A DNA stretch of 59,175 nt, the filler included, from Candidatus Woesearchaeota archaeon (GTDB lineage: Archaea > Nanobdellota > Nanobdellia > Woesearchaeales > GCA-2685855): assembly GCA_002685855.1 (NCBI GenBank). It is 4 parts of 4 records of this genome, joined end to end, with 100 filler letters (N's around TTAATTAATTAA, not from the genome) between each part and the next. Parts side by side here need not be neighbours in the genome. Positions count along the whole stretch, not along the records: positions 13,878 to 41,257 come from NYYS01000036.1; 3 more parts are not named here. One strand, 5' to 3'. Below, piece after piece: positions 21,912 to 40,195 of this stretch. Position 1 is the stretch's first letter. Each line of letters starts with the position of its first letter. The notes under the pieces are model-generated. The model worked only from the letters and a program-made list of their open reading frames with translations. It had not been told where the DNA came from and did not search any database. The position numbers and the translations under genes are program-made.

Positions 21912-23231
21912 ATGAAAACCAACTTTTTAACCGTAATGGTAGTAATGTTTATCAGCGTCCTAAGCGCTGTAAGTGTTTCAGCAGTAGACGCACACATAGA
22001 ATATGCAAGAATTAATGGAGAAATCATAGATTTCACCAACAACAACGAACTCAGCCTCGAAGTCGAACGAGGAGAAGAACTTGACATCCGTGTCAAGGTC
22101 GTAGCTGACGCAGACGTAGAAAACTTCCAGGTCATGGGAGATATTGTCGGCTATAGATATTCTAACGATGAACATTCCAAGGTTCACGACGCATCAAAGA
22201 CATACGATCTCACGGAAAACGACACAAAATTCGTCGATCTCAACCTTGATGTCCCTATATTCATGGACAAAAAATATACACTGCTCAGATTCACTCTAGC
22301 AGATGAAAACTCTCAAAGCTTCACAAGAGACATCCAGCTCCACGTAACAGGAATTGATGAAGATGACGCAATCCGAATCGATGACTGGGAATTCTCACCT
22401 TCCAACGAAATCATGGCAGGACGAGCATTCACAGCCCTTGTTAATGTAGAAAACATCGGAGACGATGATCTGGACGACATCAAAGTAACAGTAAGAATCC
22501 CTTCATTGGGCGTTCAGGACTCAGAATTCCTAGACGAACTCGAAGCAGATGAAGACGAAACCTTTGAAGAACTCCTCCTTAGAGTTCCTGATTGTACAGA
22601 ACCTGGTCTCTACGACGTAGAAATCGAAGTGGAATTCGATAGATTCAACTCAGTTACAGCAAGCGACACAATAACAGTTGTTGAAAACGAACTTTGTGGC
22701 CTTGAAGAGGAAGAAGAAGAGGAAGAAGAAGAGAACAACCATGAAGACCTGGAAGATTCCAGAACAGTTATCAGTGTTCCTGGCTCCCAAACTGTAACCG
22801 TAGGAACAGGCGGAGTAACCTATCCTGTTGTGATAAGCAATGAAGGAAAGACAGCCAAAACCTATACATTGACAGTTGAAGGTGCAGCCTCATGGGCAAC
22901 AACACGACTCGATCCTGGATCCCAAGTCGTTGTAGGCTCTCATGACACAGAAACAGTATTCCTCTACGTGACCCCTCTTGACGATGCAGAAGCAGGTCAG
23001 AAGGTTTTTACCGTAACCCTTGAGTCTGGGGATGAAAAGAAAGAGATCCCACTCACTGCAGACGTTGTCGCAGCTCCTAGCGGAGATGGTACGAGCGGAG
23101 GACTTGTCAGAGGTCTTCAAGTTGCACTCATCGTTTTAGTTATCATCCTGATCATCCTCGGTCTTGTTGTTGGATTCAACAAGATGAAGGACTCAGATGA
23201 TGAAGATGACGAAAACCAAACCTATTATTAG
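21912..23231 (+). CDS. S-layer-like membrane-anchored protein with CARDB/Ig domains
   Basis: Signal peptide, VNVENIG CARDB motif, poly-Glu linker, C-terminal TM and acidic tail ending TYY, followed by an oligo-T tract. Confidence 0.8.
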   Translation: MKTNFLTVMVVMFISVLSAVSVSAVDAHIEYARINGEIIDFTNNNELSLEVERGEELDIRVKVVADADVENFQVMGDIVGYRYSNDEHSKVHDASKTYDLTENDTKFVDLNLDVPIFMDKKYTLLRFTLADENSQSFTRDIQLHVTGIDEDDAIRIDDWEFSPSNEIMAGRAFTALVNVENIGDDDLDDIKVTVRIPSLGVQDSEFLDELEADEDETFEELLLRVPDCTEPGLYDVEIEVEFDRFNSVTASDTITVVENELCGLEEEEEEEEEENNHEDLEDSRTVISVPGSQTVTVGTGGVTYPVVISNEGKTAKTYTLTVEGAASWATTRLDPGSQVVVGSHDTETVFLYVTPLDDAEAGQKVFTVTLESGDEKKEIPLTADVVAAPSGDGTSGGLVRGLQVALIVLVIILIILGLVVGFNKMKDSDDEDDENQTYY

Positions 23232-23308
23232 GTTTTTTTTCTTTTTTTATAATATTTTTTTAATACATAAACGTTCTGGACTTTGTGAGGGTCTGGTGAG
23301 GGGAACAA

Positions 23309-25207
23309 ATGAATCAAAGGATAGAAAAGGTGTCCACCATCAGGAAGTCATTCTTATTCCTTGCACTACTATCACTTCTTTTTGTACCCAGTGTCACATC
23401 AGAATTTGTAGTTTACACCTATGACAACATTCACGACTTCACAATCTCCTCACCCTCATCTGCAGTACGCATGTGTGCCTGTTCTCAGCTACAAGACACA
23501 ATCATTATAAAGAACACAGGTAACTATGCCGCAATCTTTACCCTATCAACAGACCAGCCTGGCATCGTCTCCTACTCAGACACATTTTTCTTCCTTGAAT
23601 CAGGACAGTCAAAAAAAGTAACCCTCTACCTCACAGCAAACTGTGACGTCACAGCCCACACAACCTATTCCACCTTTGTCAAAACCAACTATGGAAAAAT
23701 CCAGGAACTCAAAAAAACTATTGCCATCGGAATCTGCCAAAACATTGCTATGGGGGTCTCTTCACCCATAACAGAAACCCTCCCTTGTACAGCTGTTCCT
23801 TTTGACATCTACATAAAAAACACAGGCTTCTACGCAGACAGATACACAATAGGAGTTCCAAACCATGAACAGGACGTTTTTGTTACAGAAAACGGCTTTC
23901 TTCTCCAACCCGGAGAAAACCGCACCATTGGTGCACTCCTCAACCTCTCCTGCGGAACCTACGGAGAACAAGATATCTTCTTCACAGCAAAAGCAGAAAA
24001 GTCAGACCTTCTCACATCACAAAGATACAATCTTACAATCAACGATGACTACAACTACACAACTGAAATAATTGACACCACCCTCTGCGAGTTTGATAAC
24101 ACAATCTCCATCTCTCTTTCCAATCAGGGATCTATAAAGAACACATACTCGCTCATGCTAACAGGCCCACTATTCCTCTCACTAAAAAATAACACAATAG
24201 AAGTAGCTCCCTATTCCACAGAAGTCATCACCCTAACCCTTGATTCTGATCAGATGAACAATACCGGCTCATTCGAGTACAAACTAACTATAAAACCCGA
24301 GTTTGGCGATCTTGAACAAACCCTGGAAGAAACATTCGAGATCCTCAACTGCCACGACCTCACACTAACTATGGATGTAGACACCCTCTGCTCAGACACC
24401 GAAACAACCACAGTAACCCTCCACAACAATGGCGTACTCAACGAAGTCCTCGAAGTCACAACACCGGACACCAACGTACTCCCCATTCCTGCCAACCTCA
24501 CTATTGAATCTGAAGAAGAGGTCATGATAGACCTCCTACTCGCTGAATTGGACAGCGACCCGTTTGACATGACCCTTCGCTTCACACACAGCGATGATAG
24601 GACATCCTCTTTCCTCCTCTCTTATAAAATCCTCAACACATCAACCTGTAAAGCAGTCACCTTTAGAGATACAGACGAAACCCTCTTCCATGGAGAAAAC
24701 TCCTACAGTCTCATCCTGGAACATACAGGATACGAAGCAGCAACCTATGCAATATATCACGAAACAGCCAACCCCTGGTGGAAACTCCAGACAACAGATG
24801 ATATCTACCTTGAACCTGGCCAGGCAGTCCTAATCAATTTCTCTGCAGACCCTGAGAACAGTTCTGAAGACTACTATTCTGCCCTAACACTCACAACAGA
24901 CGACCTCACCTACACCTATGAGCACCTTCTCAGAGTTCGAGCACCAACATGGCAGAACAGACTCTGGGACTTTGTAACTTCAACAACCGAAATCATAAGC
25001 CTAACAATCCTTATCCTTCTATTACTCCTATTCATCATCTATCTCCTGATCGTATTCATCATCAGAAAGATCAAACAACTCTGGCTCAAGTGGATAGCAT
25101 ACAGAAGAAGAAAAAGAGAAGAACGCTTTATTCGAAGAGCAAAAGACATTATCAACATAATCGAATCAGTCTTTGAGCCCTATGCTCCTCCTAAAAAGAA
25201 GGGATAA
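23309..25207 (+). CDS. Multi-Ig-domain membrane-anchored surface protein
   Basis: Signal peptide, repeated IKNTG/LSNQG/LHNNG Ig starts, and a C-terminal TM with basic tail. Confidence 0.8.
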   Translation: MNQRIEKVSTIRKSFLFLALLSLLFVPSVTSEFVVYTYDNIHDFTISSPSSAVRMCACSQLQDTIIIKNTGNYAAIFTLSTDQPGIVSYSDTFFFLESGQSKKVTLYLTANCDVTAHTTYSTFVKTNYGKIQELKKTIAIGICQNIAMGVSSPITETLPCTAVPFDIYIKNTGFYADRYTIGVPNHEQDVFVTENGFLLQPGENRTIGALLNLSCGTYGEQDIFFTAKAEKSDLLTSQRYNLTINDDYNYTTEIIDTTLCEFDNTISISLSNQGSIKNTYSLMLTGPLFLSLKNNTIEVAPYSTEVITLTLDSDQMNNTGSFEYKLTIKPEFGDLEQTLEETFEILNCHDLTLTMDVDTLCSDTETTTVTLHNNGVLNEVLEVTTPDTNVLPIPANLTIESEEEVMIDLLLAELDSDPFDMTLRFTHSDDRTSSFLLSYKILNTSTCKAVTFRDTDETLFHGENSYSLILEHTGYEAATYAIYHETANPWWKLQTTDDIYLEPGQAVLINFSADPENSSEDYYSALTLTTDDLTYTYEHLLRVRAPTWQNRLWDFVTSTTEIISLTILILLLLLFIIYLLIVFIIRKIKQLWLKWIAYRRRKREERFIRRAKDIINIIESVFEPYAPPKKKG

Positions 25208-25210
25208 ACC

Positions 25211-26101
25211 ATGACCGAACAGCCTATCAATAAACGGAAACTCAAAATTCTCTTAGCCAGAAAGGAGAAGTTAAAAGAACTCGTTCCTCAGAAAGAGAAA
25301 AACCTGGATGAGTGCGAAGACAGCCTCCAAAAAACTATTAATGCACTCAACGACATGGGAGATGATTGGCTTGACACAGCGCAGAAACACAAACAAAACA
25401 TGCTTGAAAAAAGAGGAGAAAGAAAACCCAAAAAACCCCGAAAAAAACTCTCCCTAAAAGGCCTCTCGATCGTCCTCGGAATCCTTTGGATCATCCTTCT
25501 CATACTCCTCTTACTCTTTGTCAGATTCCCCTTGGCCCCTTACGAGCTCCCAAGCACTGAATCAGACTCCTTTTATCACTTTAAAATCCTTGAAGATTCC
25601 TCCTTGGTCATGAACGTATCCAAGATGTGGGTAGATCCAGACAGAGACAACCTCACATTCACCCTCACAAAAACACCTACACTCACAACAACAGTAGAGG
25701 GATATATCCTAACATTTACCCCTGAACCAGACTGGTTTGGAGAAGCAACCTTCACAATCTCTGCTAAAGACTCAGAAGGCGCCATCACAAAAAGCCCGGA
25801 AATGACCCTTGAAGTCCTAGACGTGCCAGACCTCACCCTTCTAGACTACCTGCGGCTCTACAAGGCATGGCTCATCGCAATCATCGTCCTTATCTTCTTC
25901 CTCCTCCTCATATACTTAGCTAAAAGGAAAGAAGATGCCGACAAGGAAGAGGAAAAAGCCCGAAAAGAACGCCAACACAAGGTATCTCAGCAAAGAAGAG
26001 CCCTCAAAAAACAGATAAAAACAAAGCCAAAAAAATCCCCTTCTAAAAAAGAGCCCACCCCAGAAGAGCGAGAACGCGAACTCGAAGAGCCTTTTTATTA
26101 G
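25211..26101 (+). CDS. Two-TM protein with one Ig-like (tandem-95-type) domain
   Basis: EDSS...VDPDRDNLTF...PDWFGEATFTISAKD lies between two TM helices. Confidence 0.75.
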   Translation: MTEQPINKRKLKILLARKEKLKELVPQKEKNLDECEDSLQKTINALNDMGDDWLDTAQKHKQNMLEKRGERKPKKPRKKLSLKGLSIVLGILWIILLILLLLFVRFPLAPYELPSTESDSFYHFKILEDSSLVMNVSKMWVDPDRDNLTFTLTKTPTLTTTVEGYILTFTPEPDWFGEATFTISAKDSEGAITKSPEMTLEVLDVPDLTLLDYLRLYKAWLIAIIVLIFFLLLIYLAKRKEDADKEEEKARKERQHKVSQQRRALKKQIKTKPKKSPSKKEPTPEERERELEEPFY

Positions 26102-26114
26102 AAACGTTTATAAA
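26101..26114 (+). promoter_or_regulatory. BRE/TATA promoter of tRNA-Trp
   Basis: GAAACGTTTATAAA ends 25 nt before the tRNA 5' end. Confidence 0.6.
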
Positions 26115-26139: not shown

Positions 26140-26327
26140 GGGGACGTAGTATAACCTGGCTAGAGATGCATACTGCATCAGTCAAAATGGGTGGCTCCAG
26201 CTATGGAGCAATGAGCGTAAGCGATGATTTCAAACCTGGTATGTCGGATTGCTCCGAAGAAGATACCACCAGATTGGGGTTCAAAACGCAGACAAGCATA
26301 ACCTGCATGAAAGTCCCCACGTCCCCA
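26140..26327 (+). tRNA. tRNA-Trp(CCA) with three introns (26164-26185, 26201-26264, 26286-26313)
   Basis: Acceptor GGGGACG/CGTCCCC+A; anticodon arm GGTGG-CTCCAG^A-CCACC; T arm TGGGG-TTCAAA^T-CCCCA. Each insert sits in a BHB-like motif, and removing all three gives 74 nt. Confidence 0.9.
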
Positions 26328-26336
26328 CTTTTCCCC

Positions 26337-26525
26337 ATGTTCAAAAAAGAACCCGAAGAAGAAACAGTCCTTGAATACAAGTTCAGCCCACGGATGGCTA
26401 TCAAAGAAGGTGTTATTTCCTGGGATAAAGGGAAAACAAGCATCTCTATCCCTGTTGTTGATCCTAAAGAGCAGAAAGCCTTTGAAAAACGGTTTTCAAA
26501 CTATACAAAAAAGCAAAATCGATAG
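26337..26525 (+). CDS. Small hypothetical protein (62 aa)
   Basis: 3' half of the 26166 ORF, from the ATG just after tRNA-Trp (MFKKEPEEETVLEY...). Confidence 0.45.
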   Translation: MFKKEPEEETVLEYKFSPRMAIKEGVISWDKGKTSISIPVVDPKEQKAFEKRFSNYTKKQNR

Positions 26526-28211: not shown

Positions 28212-28985
28212 ATGGATATCAAAAAGACCGCAATAGAAGCAGCAAATAAAGCAGCAGAAATTCTCATCCAGAAATCAAAAGAAAAAAACGCATTCACAAT
28301 GAAGAATGCACACGACATCCAGACAGAAGTAGATCTCCTCTCAGAAAAAACCATTATCTCCACCATAAAAAAACACTTCCCTGAACATTCAATATTCGCT
28401 GAGGAATCTGGCAAACAGATCACATCCTCAGACTACCTTTGGGTCATCGACCCCCTCGACGGAACAATAAACTATTCGCGAGGCATTCACGAGGTATGCA
28501 TCATCATTGCAGTCCAGCACAAAGAAGAAATCATCTTTGACCTCATCTACCAGCCCTTCACCAAAGATCTCTACATTGCAGAAAAAGGAAAAGGAGCATT
28601 CCACAACAACAAAAAACTAACAGTCTCCAAAGAAACAGAACTCATAAACATGATCATCGCAACAGAAAACTCAAGTCATATGGAAAAAAGAAAAGAAACC
28701 CACAAAATCCTCTCTAATATCTGTGACAAATTCAGGAACATCCGCATCTTTGGATGTGGAGCACTAACCCTGACAAAACTCGCATCAGGAAAGATCGACC
28801 TATTCTTTAAAACAAAATATAATCATTGGGACTTCGCTGCAGGAGCACTCCTCGTCGAGGAAGCAGGAGGAACCGTAACAGACTTGCAAGGAAATCCCAT
28901 AACTCAACACTCAAAAGAGATCGTTGCCACCAACGCACTAAAGCACAAGGAAATCCTTGAACTTCTTAACAAGGCAAACAACTAA
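28212..28985 (+). CDS. Inositol monophosphatase family protein (SuhB-like)
   Basis: TEVD, FAEES, WVIDPLDGTINY and WDFAAGALLVEEAGG. Confidence 0.93.
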   Translation: MDIKKTAIEAANKAAEILIQKSKEKNAFTMKNAHDIQTEVDLLSEKTIISTIKKHFPEHSIFAEESGKQITSSDYLWVIDPLDGTINYSRGIHEVCIIIAVQHKEEIIFDLIYQPFTKDLYIAEKGKGAFHNNKKLTVSKETELINMIIATENSSHMEKRKETHKILSNICDKFRNIRIFGCGALTLTKLASGKIDLFFKTKYNHWDFAAGALLVEEAGGTVTDLQGNPITQHSKEIVATNALKHKEILELLNKANN

Positions 28986-29983
28986 TACAGCACATTGCAC
29001 TGGATCGGATAATTCGTCGACGTCTGTATATCCTTTGACCCCAACACACTCTGGCTGATCCTGTTAAACCCGATCCCACATCCCGAATGCAACACCGGAT
29101 TCTTCTTCACCATCTCCAGATAATCAGCAAAATCATCCAGCGTTTTTCCCCGCGTCTGCAGCACCCGAAACATCGGACTCTCCTTCAGCCGAGTAACCAA
29201 CCGATCATGATCATCTTCCCTCTCCGCAGCACCCGCACTCTCACCCGAATAAGGCATCACCAAGTCAGCACTATTCACAATCTGCGGATCGTTCCGGTTC
29301 TCACGCATATTAAAGAACTTTATCGCCTTTGGAAAATGCGTGATAAACAACGGCTTTCTGCCCATCTCTTGCACAAGATACTGCTCATGCTCACTCGAAA
29401 AATCATCACCAAACCGAATAGCATGCGCCGACCCATCAAGAACATCAACAGCTTCCCGATACGATATACATCCAAACTTCTCCTCAACCCAGCCCACCAT
29501 CTCTTCATACCGCCCAAGCTCCTCCAAATCATTCCCTCTCTCCCGAAGAGCAGAACGCATCATCGCCTTCATCGTTCCCTCAATATGCCCAAGCACATCA
29601 CCCAGCCTCCCTGCATGCTCAAGCTCGATCAGCTGAAACTGGTTCAGATGCCTCTCATCAGCCTGATCCTCAGCCCGCGAACTCGTAATAATAGTCCACA
29701 ACTTATTATGAAGAGGAATCTTCGCCTCTAGATACAACTGCCCTGTCTGAGCAAGATAGGCCTCCTGCCCAAAATGATCCACAGCATACAACGTATCCAC
29801 ATTCTCACACGCCCCAGTAATCTTCGTCATAATCGGAACCTCCACCCAGGTAAACCCTTCTTTACGAAGATAATCCATCGCTCCCCACAACAAGGCATCA
29901 TTAATCCCATCAATAACTCCCGCCTCCTCACTATTAATAATTCCAAACCTTCCTTCTGTCTTGCAAAACGCTTCTAAATTCAT
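28982..29983 (-). CDS. AsnRS-paralogue lacking the anticodon domain (archaeal-type asparagine synthetase A-like)
   Basis: YLAQTGQLYLE, SRAE..RHLNQF.LIELE and HSGCGIGFNRI; only 333 aa, with no N-terminal OB domain. Confidence 0.8.
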   Translation of the reverse strand: MNLEAFCKTEGRFGIINSEEAGVIDGINDALLWGAMDYLRKEGFTWVEVPIMTKITGACENVDTLYAVDHFGQEAYLAQTGQLYLEAKIPLHNKLWTIITSSRAEDQADERHLNQFQLIELEHAGRLGDVLGHIEGTMKAMMRSALRERGNDLEELGRYEEMVGWVEEKFGCISYREAVDVLDGSAHAIRFGDDFSSEHEQYLVQEMGRKPLFITHFPKAIKFFNMRENRNDPQIVNSADLVMPYSGESAGAAEREDDHDRLVTRLKESPMFRVLQTRGKTLDDFADYLEMVKKNPVLHSGCGIGFNRISQSVLGSKDIQTSTNYPIQCNVLY

Positions 29984-40107: not shown

Positions 40108-40195
40108 GGGAACGTAGCTCAGACTGGGAGAGCACTACGCTGAAGATTTCCAATCTGAGACGTAGGTGTCCCGGGTTCAAATCCCGGCGTTCCCA
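40108..40195 (+). tRNA. tRNA-Phe(GAA) with a canonical 14-nt intron at 37/38 (40146-40159)
   Basis: GGGAACG/CGTTCCC+A; CTACG-CTGAAG^A-CGTAG; CCGGG-TTCAAAT-CCCGG. Spliced length 74 nt. Confidence 0.93.

Follow-up and report, generated by a model that had tools for sequence, protein, structure and literature searches.

A tRNA-Trp(CCA) gene of a Woesearchaeales archaeon contains three introns that a single-subunit splicing endonuclease (EndA) would cut out, with RtcB sealing the exons. The middle one carries a permuted box C/D guide with one kink-turn that would direct fibrillarin to C34 before splicing. We assign this reading, which is drawn from sequence, a probability of about three in four. 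The gene lies at 26140-26327 (+) of the window, by which we mean the whole 59,175-nt stretch of DNA analyzed, on contig C36 of a 953-kb, 94%-complete genome. An intron-aware finder was used, in which a profile trained on intronless tRNAs of relatives jumps across BHB-bounded stretches. Its top path at this locus gave three introns and a 74-nt mature form with stems of 7/3/5/5, which is exactly the parse of the first-pass annotation (188 nt minus 22, 64 and 28 nt). The features are as follows.

26100-26106 (+): BRE-like purine run, putative promoter element
26107-26114 (+): putative TATA box, TTTATAAA, 26-33 nt upstream of G1
26140-26163 (+): exon 1, tRNA positions 1-22 (finder and relatives)
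26164-26185 (+): intron 1, 22 nt, site 22/23 (finder)
26186-26200 (+): exon 2, positions 23-37; anticodon CCA at 26197-26199, C34 at 26197
26201-26264 (+): intron 2, 64 nt, site 37/38, containing the permuted box C/D guide
26204-26209 (+): guide TGGAGC, complementary to positions 31-36 (sequence)
26211-26230 (+): predicted single kink-turn (sequence, conservation, covariation)
26211-26214 (+): box D, ATGA
26215-26222 (+): closing hairpin, followed by a 3-nt bulge
26224-26230 (+): box C, ATGATTT
26237-26242 (+): second antisense element, TGGTAT, complementary to positions 38-41 and the two intron bases just before them
26265-26285 (+): exon 3, positions 38-59 (finder)
26286-26313 (+): intron 3, 28 nt, site 59/60 (finder)
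26314-26327 (+): exon 4, positions 60-73, discriminator A73; CCA unencoded, short T run after
26166-26525 (+): 119-codon ORF, its 5' part within the tRNA non-coding in appearance
26337-26525 (+): candidate 62-aa gene of no known family (codon use)

The locus scored 68.7, compared with a maximum of 16.3 across 150 shuffles of the gene within its flanks. Compared with eight relatives whose 74-nt gene has no intron, the spliced exons agree at 53-63 of 74 positions, and since relatives exist without each insertion, the intron boundaries are supported independently of the BHB motif. Removal of the introns leaves a cloverleaf with the conserved positions in place, and both EndA and RtcB are encoded, as expected for an archaeal tRNA gene with BHB introns. 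Canonical arms had been predicted for the spliced product; the stem lengths bear this out, but the D stem retains an A12-A23 mismatch, a feature typical of the lineage (76/128 parsed genes). Similar promoter motifs stand at the same distance 5' of related Trp genes. Just upstream, at 21912-26101 (+), three consecutive genes resemble membrane-anchored surface proteins by eye, and at 28982-29983 (−) the window encodes a 333-aa protein with a class II aminoacyl-tRNA synthetase-like catalytic domain and no anticodon domain, which we take to be asparagine synthetase-like.

The suspicion that standard scanners would miss this gene proved correct for the two applied, ARAGORN and Rfam. ARAGORN reported 16 tRNAs in the whole genome (25 with a lower threshold), Trp absent from them, and when given the eight splice states of the gene it called Trp in the two from which the outer introns had been removed and returned nothing for the other six. 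The Rfam tRNA model RF00005 exceeded its cut-off at 11 places in the genome, this locus not among them, and no Rfam family matched the locus at gathering or E-value thresholds. A search for another tRNA-Trp, as the first-pass annotation had advised, found none in the 94%-complete assembly, either with the finder genome-wide or with an intronless relative's Trp gene as query, for which 26140-26327 was the sole match. The 1617 TGG codons within the long ORFs of the genome require a Trp decoder. These sequence comparisons confirm the locus as a real gene with three introns and as the only detectable tRNA-Trp gene of the genome. That a normal tRNA-Trp lies in sequence outside the assembly, this locus being a degenerate copy or a product of misassembly, we regard as scarcely credible: 6% of markers are absent and tRNA-Tyr and tRNA-Val were likewise not found, but the stems, promoter and splice motifs are all intact, the TGG codons have to be read, and the Trp gene L218 of another genome has three introns at identical positions. 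Contigs assembled from public DNA runs also carry the same letters, one across the entire locus (possibly the source of the assembly) and one from another study spanning intron 3; no joints or variants were seen at the locus in these contigs, cover being patchy in three of the four runs. Six public runs were listed for this sequence, none of them from RNA.

The three junctions are relaxed versions of the BHB motif. The central helices previously proposed (GGCT:AGTC, CTCC:GAAG and TTCA:TGAA) were confirmed, the first with one G-U pair and the second with one mismatch, so that introns 1 and 3 have four of four central pairs together with one outer helix and intron 2 has three of four (a relaxed form). 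In intron 1 the 4-bp central helix is joined to a 5-bp intron helix with the regular exon helix absent (HBh'). Intron 3 has a perfect central helix, and the T stem serves as its exon helix. The intron helix beside the bulge is imperfect in introns 2 and 3, and none of the three isolated junctions folds better than shuffled sequence (z −1.1 to −1.6). Intron 1 is missing from most relatives; four other genes have a 22/23 intron of different sequence.

An ORF of 119 codons overlaps the gene and had been called spurious. This appears to hold for its first 57 codons: the 54 codons inside the tRNA have a codon-use score of 0.09. The 62 codons that begin at ATG 26337, in contrast, score 0.41, similar to the neighboring genes (0.40 and 0.54), and they likely form a real gene, judging from codon use. 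When the 119-aa translation was compared with 60 relatives, the sole match was the translation of another Trp gene, interrupted by two stops, and the 62-aa protein had no match in the ESM Atlas. The arrangement is an annotation trap, in which a gene caller stretches a small gene back into a tRNA.

The guide module of intron 2, which the first-pass annotation did not mention, is complementary to the anticodon region of its own tRNA: base 26206, the fifth ahead of box D, is opposite C34 (26197), the register of a 2'-O-methylation guide. Tandem G-A pairs, a closing stem and a bulge provide the sequence features of a kink-turn. Among introns of relatives, the guide core is kept in 111/115 (starting 3-4 nt from the intron start in 84) and the GA of box D in 109/111; the guide base opposite position 31 covaries poorly, pairing in three of 11 cases where position 31 is C. 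The hairpin of the kink-turn covaries among relatives, and the D1-C pair that closes its second stem is Watson-Crick in 84/108 introns (shuffles: mean 59, maximum 70), a count inflated by kinship. The second antisense element is present in 34/115 introns. In 29 of these 34 it fits the unspliced 3' junction and covaries with the last two intron bases, and the fits include five different intron ends that the spliced tRNA would not match. The order expected of a box C/D RNA is C, D', C', D. Here D precedes C, a second C'/D' motif is lacking, and box D' reads TCGG and is decayed and unconserved among relatives, most of whose introns are 33-55 nt long with one kink-turn and the second half absent. 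In the 17 Halobacteriota Trp introns inspected the elements run canonically, as C, guide39, D', C', guide34, D, and the window intron is thus a circular permutation of that arrangement with half of it lost. The permuted pattern gave 12 matches in 10/101 Halobacteriota genomes, and none of the six that were read is a tRNA; permuted forms were found in 3/101 Micrarchaeota genomes and in one Undinarchaeota record.

The same module is present in the Met and Leu(CAA) introns of the window genome, with guides matched to their own anticodons. The Met pattern was found in 93/201 genomes and the Leu(CAA) pattern in 70/201 (both tallies including the unpublished genome G131), compared with 4 and 0 in reversed controls, and the loci read from these matches were tRNA genes in 12/12 and 11/12 cases. 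In all three tRNAs, each of which has C34, the base that pairs with it stands fifth ahead of box D.

The window genome encodes RtcB, fibrillarin, Nop5 (Nop domain) and a member of the L7Ae family. Across the order, fibrillarin was above cut-off in 363/401 genomes, six of those counted as lacking it being so assigned from their absence in the table. The presence of the module broadly follows that of fibrillarin. Of 118 genomes with fibrillarin, 101 have the full module, nine a variant and eight no 37/38 intron. In a first set of fibrillarin-less genomes the module was missing from 7/8; of ten more, picked afterwards, nine were informative, seven without the module and two with it (the match in the tenth was another tRNA), which gives 14/17 informative genomes without it. 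Fibrillarin was undetected yet the module full in G289 (71% complete), G127 (99%) and G309 (96%). Among 15 fibrillarin-less genomes of the first 200 (including the unpublished G111 and G120), the Met pattern occurred in two and the Leu pattern in three. Because the fibrillarin-less genomes belong to about seven families, and five of them to one genus, they represent few independent events. Repeated apparent loss of fibrillarin was seen in families f41, f44, f122 and f18, including two single-contig genomes.

We propose that in the initial fold of the precursor the guide would occupy positions 31-36 and the second element would cover the 3' junction, a pairing that would open the anticodon stem and hide the middle BHB. 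L7Ae would bind the kink-turn, and fibrillarin would 2'-O-methylate the tRNA's own C34; refolding would then expose the splice motif, so that the middle intron would be the last to be removed. All three BHB-type introns would be cut by the single-subunit EndA and joined by RtcB, and the outer two look like neutral passengers that may have been gained recently. In folding predictions for the whole precursor, the guide-paired form has −61.7 kcal/mol and the splicing form −56.2 kcal/mol; on its own, the anticodon arm is predicted to adopt the splicing-type helix. The two forms are mutually exclusive since positions 32-35 serve both as guide target and in the BHB central helix. The Trp intron of Haloferax is reported to guide Cm34 and Um39 formation before splicing, with the target opposite the fifth base before box D (PMC2584109). 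Archaeal C/D particles are described as normally having two kink-turns (PMC7994747, PMC2584109). The two kink-turns of those particles, the fold of the isolated arm and of the junctions, and the poor covariation opposite position 31 count against the proposal. In cis only 3 nt separate the guide from its target, perhaps leaving the enzyme too little room. Eight genomes with fibrillarin lack such an intron, and three genomes in which fibrillarin was undetected keep the module.

Alternatively, the guide could act in trans after excision, with RtcB circularization rejoining the 3' end of the intron to the 5' guide and restoring the order C, guide, D', C', guide, D. The Trp intron of Haloferax is known for trans action and for circles (PMC4090602, PMC7994747), a permuted sRNA of Nanoarchaeum equitans requires circularization according to its description (PMC3491384), and several of the longer introns of relatives terminate in a C'-like TGATGA or TGAGGA. 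Nevertheless, the 33-55-nt length of most introns, with one kink-turn, no second half and an unconserved D', speaks against it, as does the second element, for which 17 discriminating matches favor the unspliced junction and two the mature form. We consider action in trans unlikely, although it is the strongest competitor. A circularized full bipartite guide was rejected as a general model on the same grounds of length, single kink-turn and lost D' in most genes. It is less probable still that the module guides no methylation and is a structural, L7Ae-binding kink-turn combined with a folding switch that times splicing. The single kink-turn, the decayed D' and the three genomes that have the module without detected fibrillarin would fit such a role, but the five-base spacing to box D is fixed across three C34 tRNAs. 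Moreover, L7Ae is a ribosomal protein and is expected to be retained without fibrillarin, whereas the module is mostly missing where fibrillarin is. Methylation of C34 in cis before splicing is the reading that we prefer.

The first-pass annotation had also supposed that this lineage has an EndA of broad specificity. The genome encodes one EndA, a 211-aa alpha subunit on contig C25 (L001:1474-3120) whose gene is divergent from an adjoining RNase Z-like gene (family assigned by eye). Its best solved relative is the N. equitans alpha chain, and it is collinear over its full length with the Methanocaldococcus jannaschii enzyme. The Tyr/His/Lys triad is contained in a single alpha gene, as in alpha4 enzymes. 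Neither a beta-like paralogue nor a three-unit fusion was found, a six-frame profile search of the genome yielding no other match below E 3.6. Insertions of the CSL/ASL or Nanoarchaeum type were not detected with the profile, the M. jannaschii alignment or 30 aligned proteins; the N-domain has 62 residues over 61 profile positions, and the loop before the catalytic His is equal in length to that of M. jannaschii and six residues shorter than that of N. equitans. The supposed breadth is thus not accompanied by an (alpha-beta)2 or epsilon2 architecture or by insertion loops, and it is the substrates that speak for it: 13 of the 16 scored D-arm, variable-arm and 53/54 introns of the genome lack a regular exon helix, and from these relaxed motifs we infer a tolerant EndA. 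CSL and ASL loops are reported to widen EndA specificity, with a similar proposal for the basic loop of Nanoarchaeum (PMC3488258), while alpha4 enzymes have been described as strict (PMC3239211).

That strictness, together with the missing 6% of the genome and the 13/16 introns without a regular exon helix, could favor a heteromer in which a second subunit or an accessory factor, outside the assembly or too diverged to be recognized, allows relaxed motifs to be cut. We judge this very improbable, given that the N. equitans beta subunit was readily detected with the same query (E 2.5e-15) while the six-frame search found no second subunit in this genome. Among 61 genomes, 58 had an EndA match, with short, single-unit frames and a beta-like second copy in none; the exceptions were one genome with two full alpha copies and one with the gene split over contig ends. 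A tolerant single-subunit enzyme is the likely reading. We also looked for an EndA feature that tracks intron load, and none emerged in the 30 aligned proteins, whose genomes have between 9 and 43 tRNAs detectable with Rfam. By eye, 21/30 have a basic residue at the CSL position, which is thus not invariant. Rfam-detectable tRNAs range over the same 9 to 43 per genome across the order, with 13 in one closed genome and 38 in another, so that intron load varies widely while EndA is nearly invariant. Kaneta 2018 (PMC5829648) ties alpha4 enzymes with an L3 loop in DPANN to tRNA disruption, likewise a combination of one alpha subunit and many disrupted tRNAs, and loop length is reported to be unlinked to intron burden in Asgard archaea (bioRxiv 10.64898/2026.10.13.758758).

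Intron load was assessed by scanning 295 kb outside long ORFs and then the remainder of the genome. Thirty matches scored at least 54.7, the best score in a reversed-sequence control being 42.4. The gene set was curated by hand from these 30 and from anchor searches, with five parses corrected and six genes added; tRNA-Tyr and tRNA-Val were not found by finder or anchor searches in the 94%-complete genome. Introns interrupt 32 of the 36 tRNA genes (four are intronless), 16 having at least two and seven having three (Gly-TCC, Asp, Leu-TAG, Thr-GGT, Trp, Leu-CAA and Leu-TAA). The total of 55 introns (1.53 per gene) includes 18 at 59/60 and 15 at 37/38. Both sites lie at base six of a loop of seven bases closed by a 5-bp stem, and with the same geometry at 59/60 as at 37/38 the T stem provides the exon helix, which likely explains the 59/60 hotspot.

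Some introns are shared between genes. Five long (86-107 nt) 59/60 introns, in Lys-CTT, Ala-CGC, Ser-GCT, Leu-TAA and Asn-GTT, make up a single sequence family, with stretches that are 74-97% alike, and the Arg-CCT D-loop intron has 44 nt in common with the Gln-TTG 59/60 intron; these genes are on contigs C65, C23, C14, C18, C54 and C51. The sequences suggest copying between tRNA genes and sites. A dispersed repeat as the source of the long introns was ruled out, as at E<1e-3 they matched tRNA genes alone; the three Trp introns match nothing elsewhere in the genome. Two anticodons are present twice. The Leu-GAG genes (C1:13135-13252 and C48:22289-22431) and the Gln-TTG genes (C51:15375-15538 and C63:6232-6348) have near-identical exons and different introns, and the Leu-GAG copies have 93 nt at 99% in common, up to a contig end. 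Strain mixture, duplication and an integration site are candidate explanations. The window itself also contains a tRNA-Phe(GAA) with a 14-nt 37/38 intron at 40108-40195 (+), a tRNA-Arg(TCT) with a 36-nt D-loop intron at 1984-2094 (−), of which ARAGORN gives a truncated form, and adjoining the latter a tRNA-Cys(GCA) with a 59/60 intron at about 1790-1898 (−), uncalled at scanner default settings.

To place the Trp gene among its relatives, we matched an exon-1 pattern, which was found in 298/401 genomes of the order. Reading 140 loci and five named GTDB records gave 129 distinct Trp genes (126 from genomes of the order, two from records titled Woesearchaeota and one Micrarchaeota), a non-random sample in which genes with an intron in exon 1 are under-represented. 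A pattern scan of GTDB was too loose, nine of 120 loci being tRNA-like among the matches listed. One record titled Methanosarcinales (L087) has a Trp gene identical to one in this order, and its title is probably mislabelled. Zero, one, two, three and four introns occur in 11, 87, 24, 5 and 2 of the 129 genes, the four-intron genes being L271 (genome G361) and L053 (unpublished genome G404). Four introns are no record, as Asgard tRNA genes are reported to have up to five, with an average of 2.2, in a preprint whose text makes no reference to DPANN (bioRxiv 10.64898/2026.10.13.758758). Non-canonical introns, most commonly at 59/60 (21/129), are present in 34 genes (26%), of which ARAGORN detected three, compared with 77/84 genes with a 37/38 intron alone; the Rfam model detected one of the 18 non-canonical genes tried. 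A preprint based on tRNAscan-SE lists tRNA-Trp as missing from 30/123 complete Woesearchaeales genomes and, in its text, leaves loss, split genes and detection failure undistinguished (bioRxiv 10.64898/2026.05.13.725050). Trp genes hidden by non-canonical introns are a likely reason for this gap. The similarity of the shares (26% here, 24% in the preprint) is suggestive only; tRNAscan-SE has its own BHB step.

Multi-intron tRNAs had been said to be known mainly from Thermoproteales and ARMAN lineages, a view overtaken by the five-intron Asgard genes and the alpha4 DPANN enzymes cited above. Up to three introns per archaeal tRNA were already described (PMC3239211, PMC8450103), and the 1.53 introns per gene of the window genome equal the load of Pyrobaculum calidifontis, with 71 introns in 46 tRNA genes (PMC8450103). 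In Thermoproteales, ARMAN-2 and Asgard archaea, too, tRNA genes carry three BHB introns apiece and non-canonical sites are used, and the shared introns recall the intron families common to several Thermoproteales tRNAs. The tRNA-Ile(UAU) of C. merolae has the same layout of D-stem, 37/38 and T-loop introns (PMC3728597). The window genome differs from those multi-intron systems in its lineage, in its single alpha-type EndA without known insertions and in its strong 59/60 bias.

A box C/D guide in the Trp intron is also known (PMC4090602, PMC2584109, PMC7994747, PMC11408192). Haloferax volcanii and the sR50 RNA of Pyrococcus share with the window the 37/38 Trp intron, a TGGAG guide five bases from box D, the C34 target and a second element that spans the unspliced 3' junction. 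In contrast to the sR50 type, the Woesearchaeales module is permuted (guide34, D, hairpin, C, guide39), has one kink-turn, shrinks to 33 nt and occurs in Met and Leu(CAA) introns too; in Grosjean 2008 the Met guide never lies within the intron (PMC2584109). The closest parallel is N. equitans, another DPANN archaeon, which has C/D elements in a tRNA-Met intron and a permuted, D-before-C order in the free sRNAs sRNA24 and sRNA26 (Randau 2012, PMC3491384). The text of that paper names no target for the tRNA-Met intron RNA and gives no lineage-wide family or Trp and Leu forms (PMC3491384). We found no literature on Woesearchaeales multi-intron tRNAs or permuted one-kink intron guides in a search of the openly readable main text of articles. 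Triple introns and Trp-intron guides are thus established, and the permuted one-kink intron guide is the element we did not find in print.

More broadly, and with somewhat less than even confidence, we suggest that Woesearchaeales and some other DPANN archaea use permuted one-kink guides in the 37/38 introns of C34 tRNAs (Trp, Met and Leu-CAA) as a methylate-then-splice checkpoint, that a loop-less EndA homotetramer splices relaxed introns at a Pyrobaculum-like load, against the rule that links architecture to specificity, and that hidden genes explain the missing tRNA-Trp. A single-subunit EndA without known loops that faces relaxed motifs would offer a test of the rule of tRNA-endonuclease coevolution. 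The hidden Trp genes would give a checkable answer to the question the 2026 preprint leaves open on the absence of tRNA-Trp in Woesearchaeales, and the module, a minimal box C/D guide occurring in nature with a single kink-turn, would test whether the archaeal methylation particle needs two.
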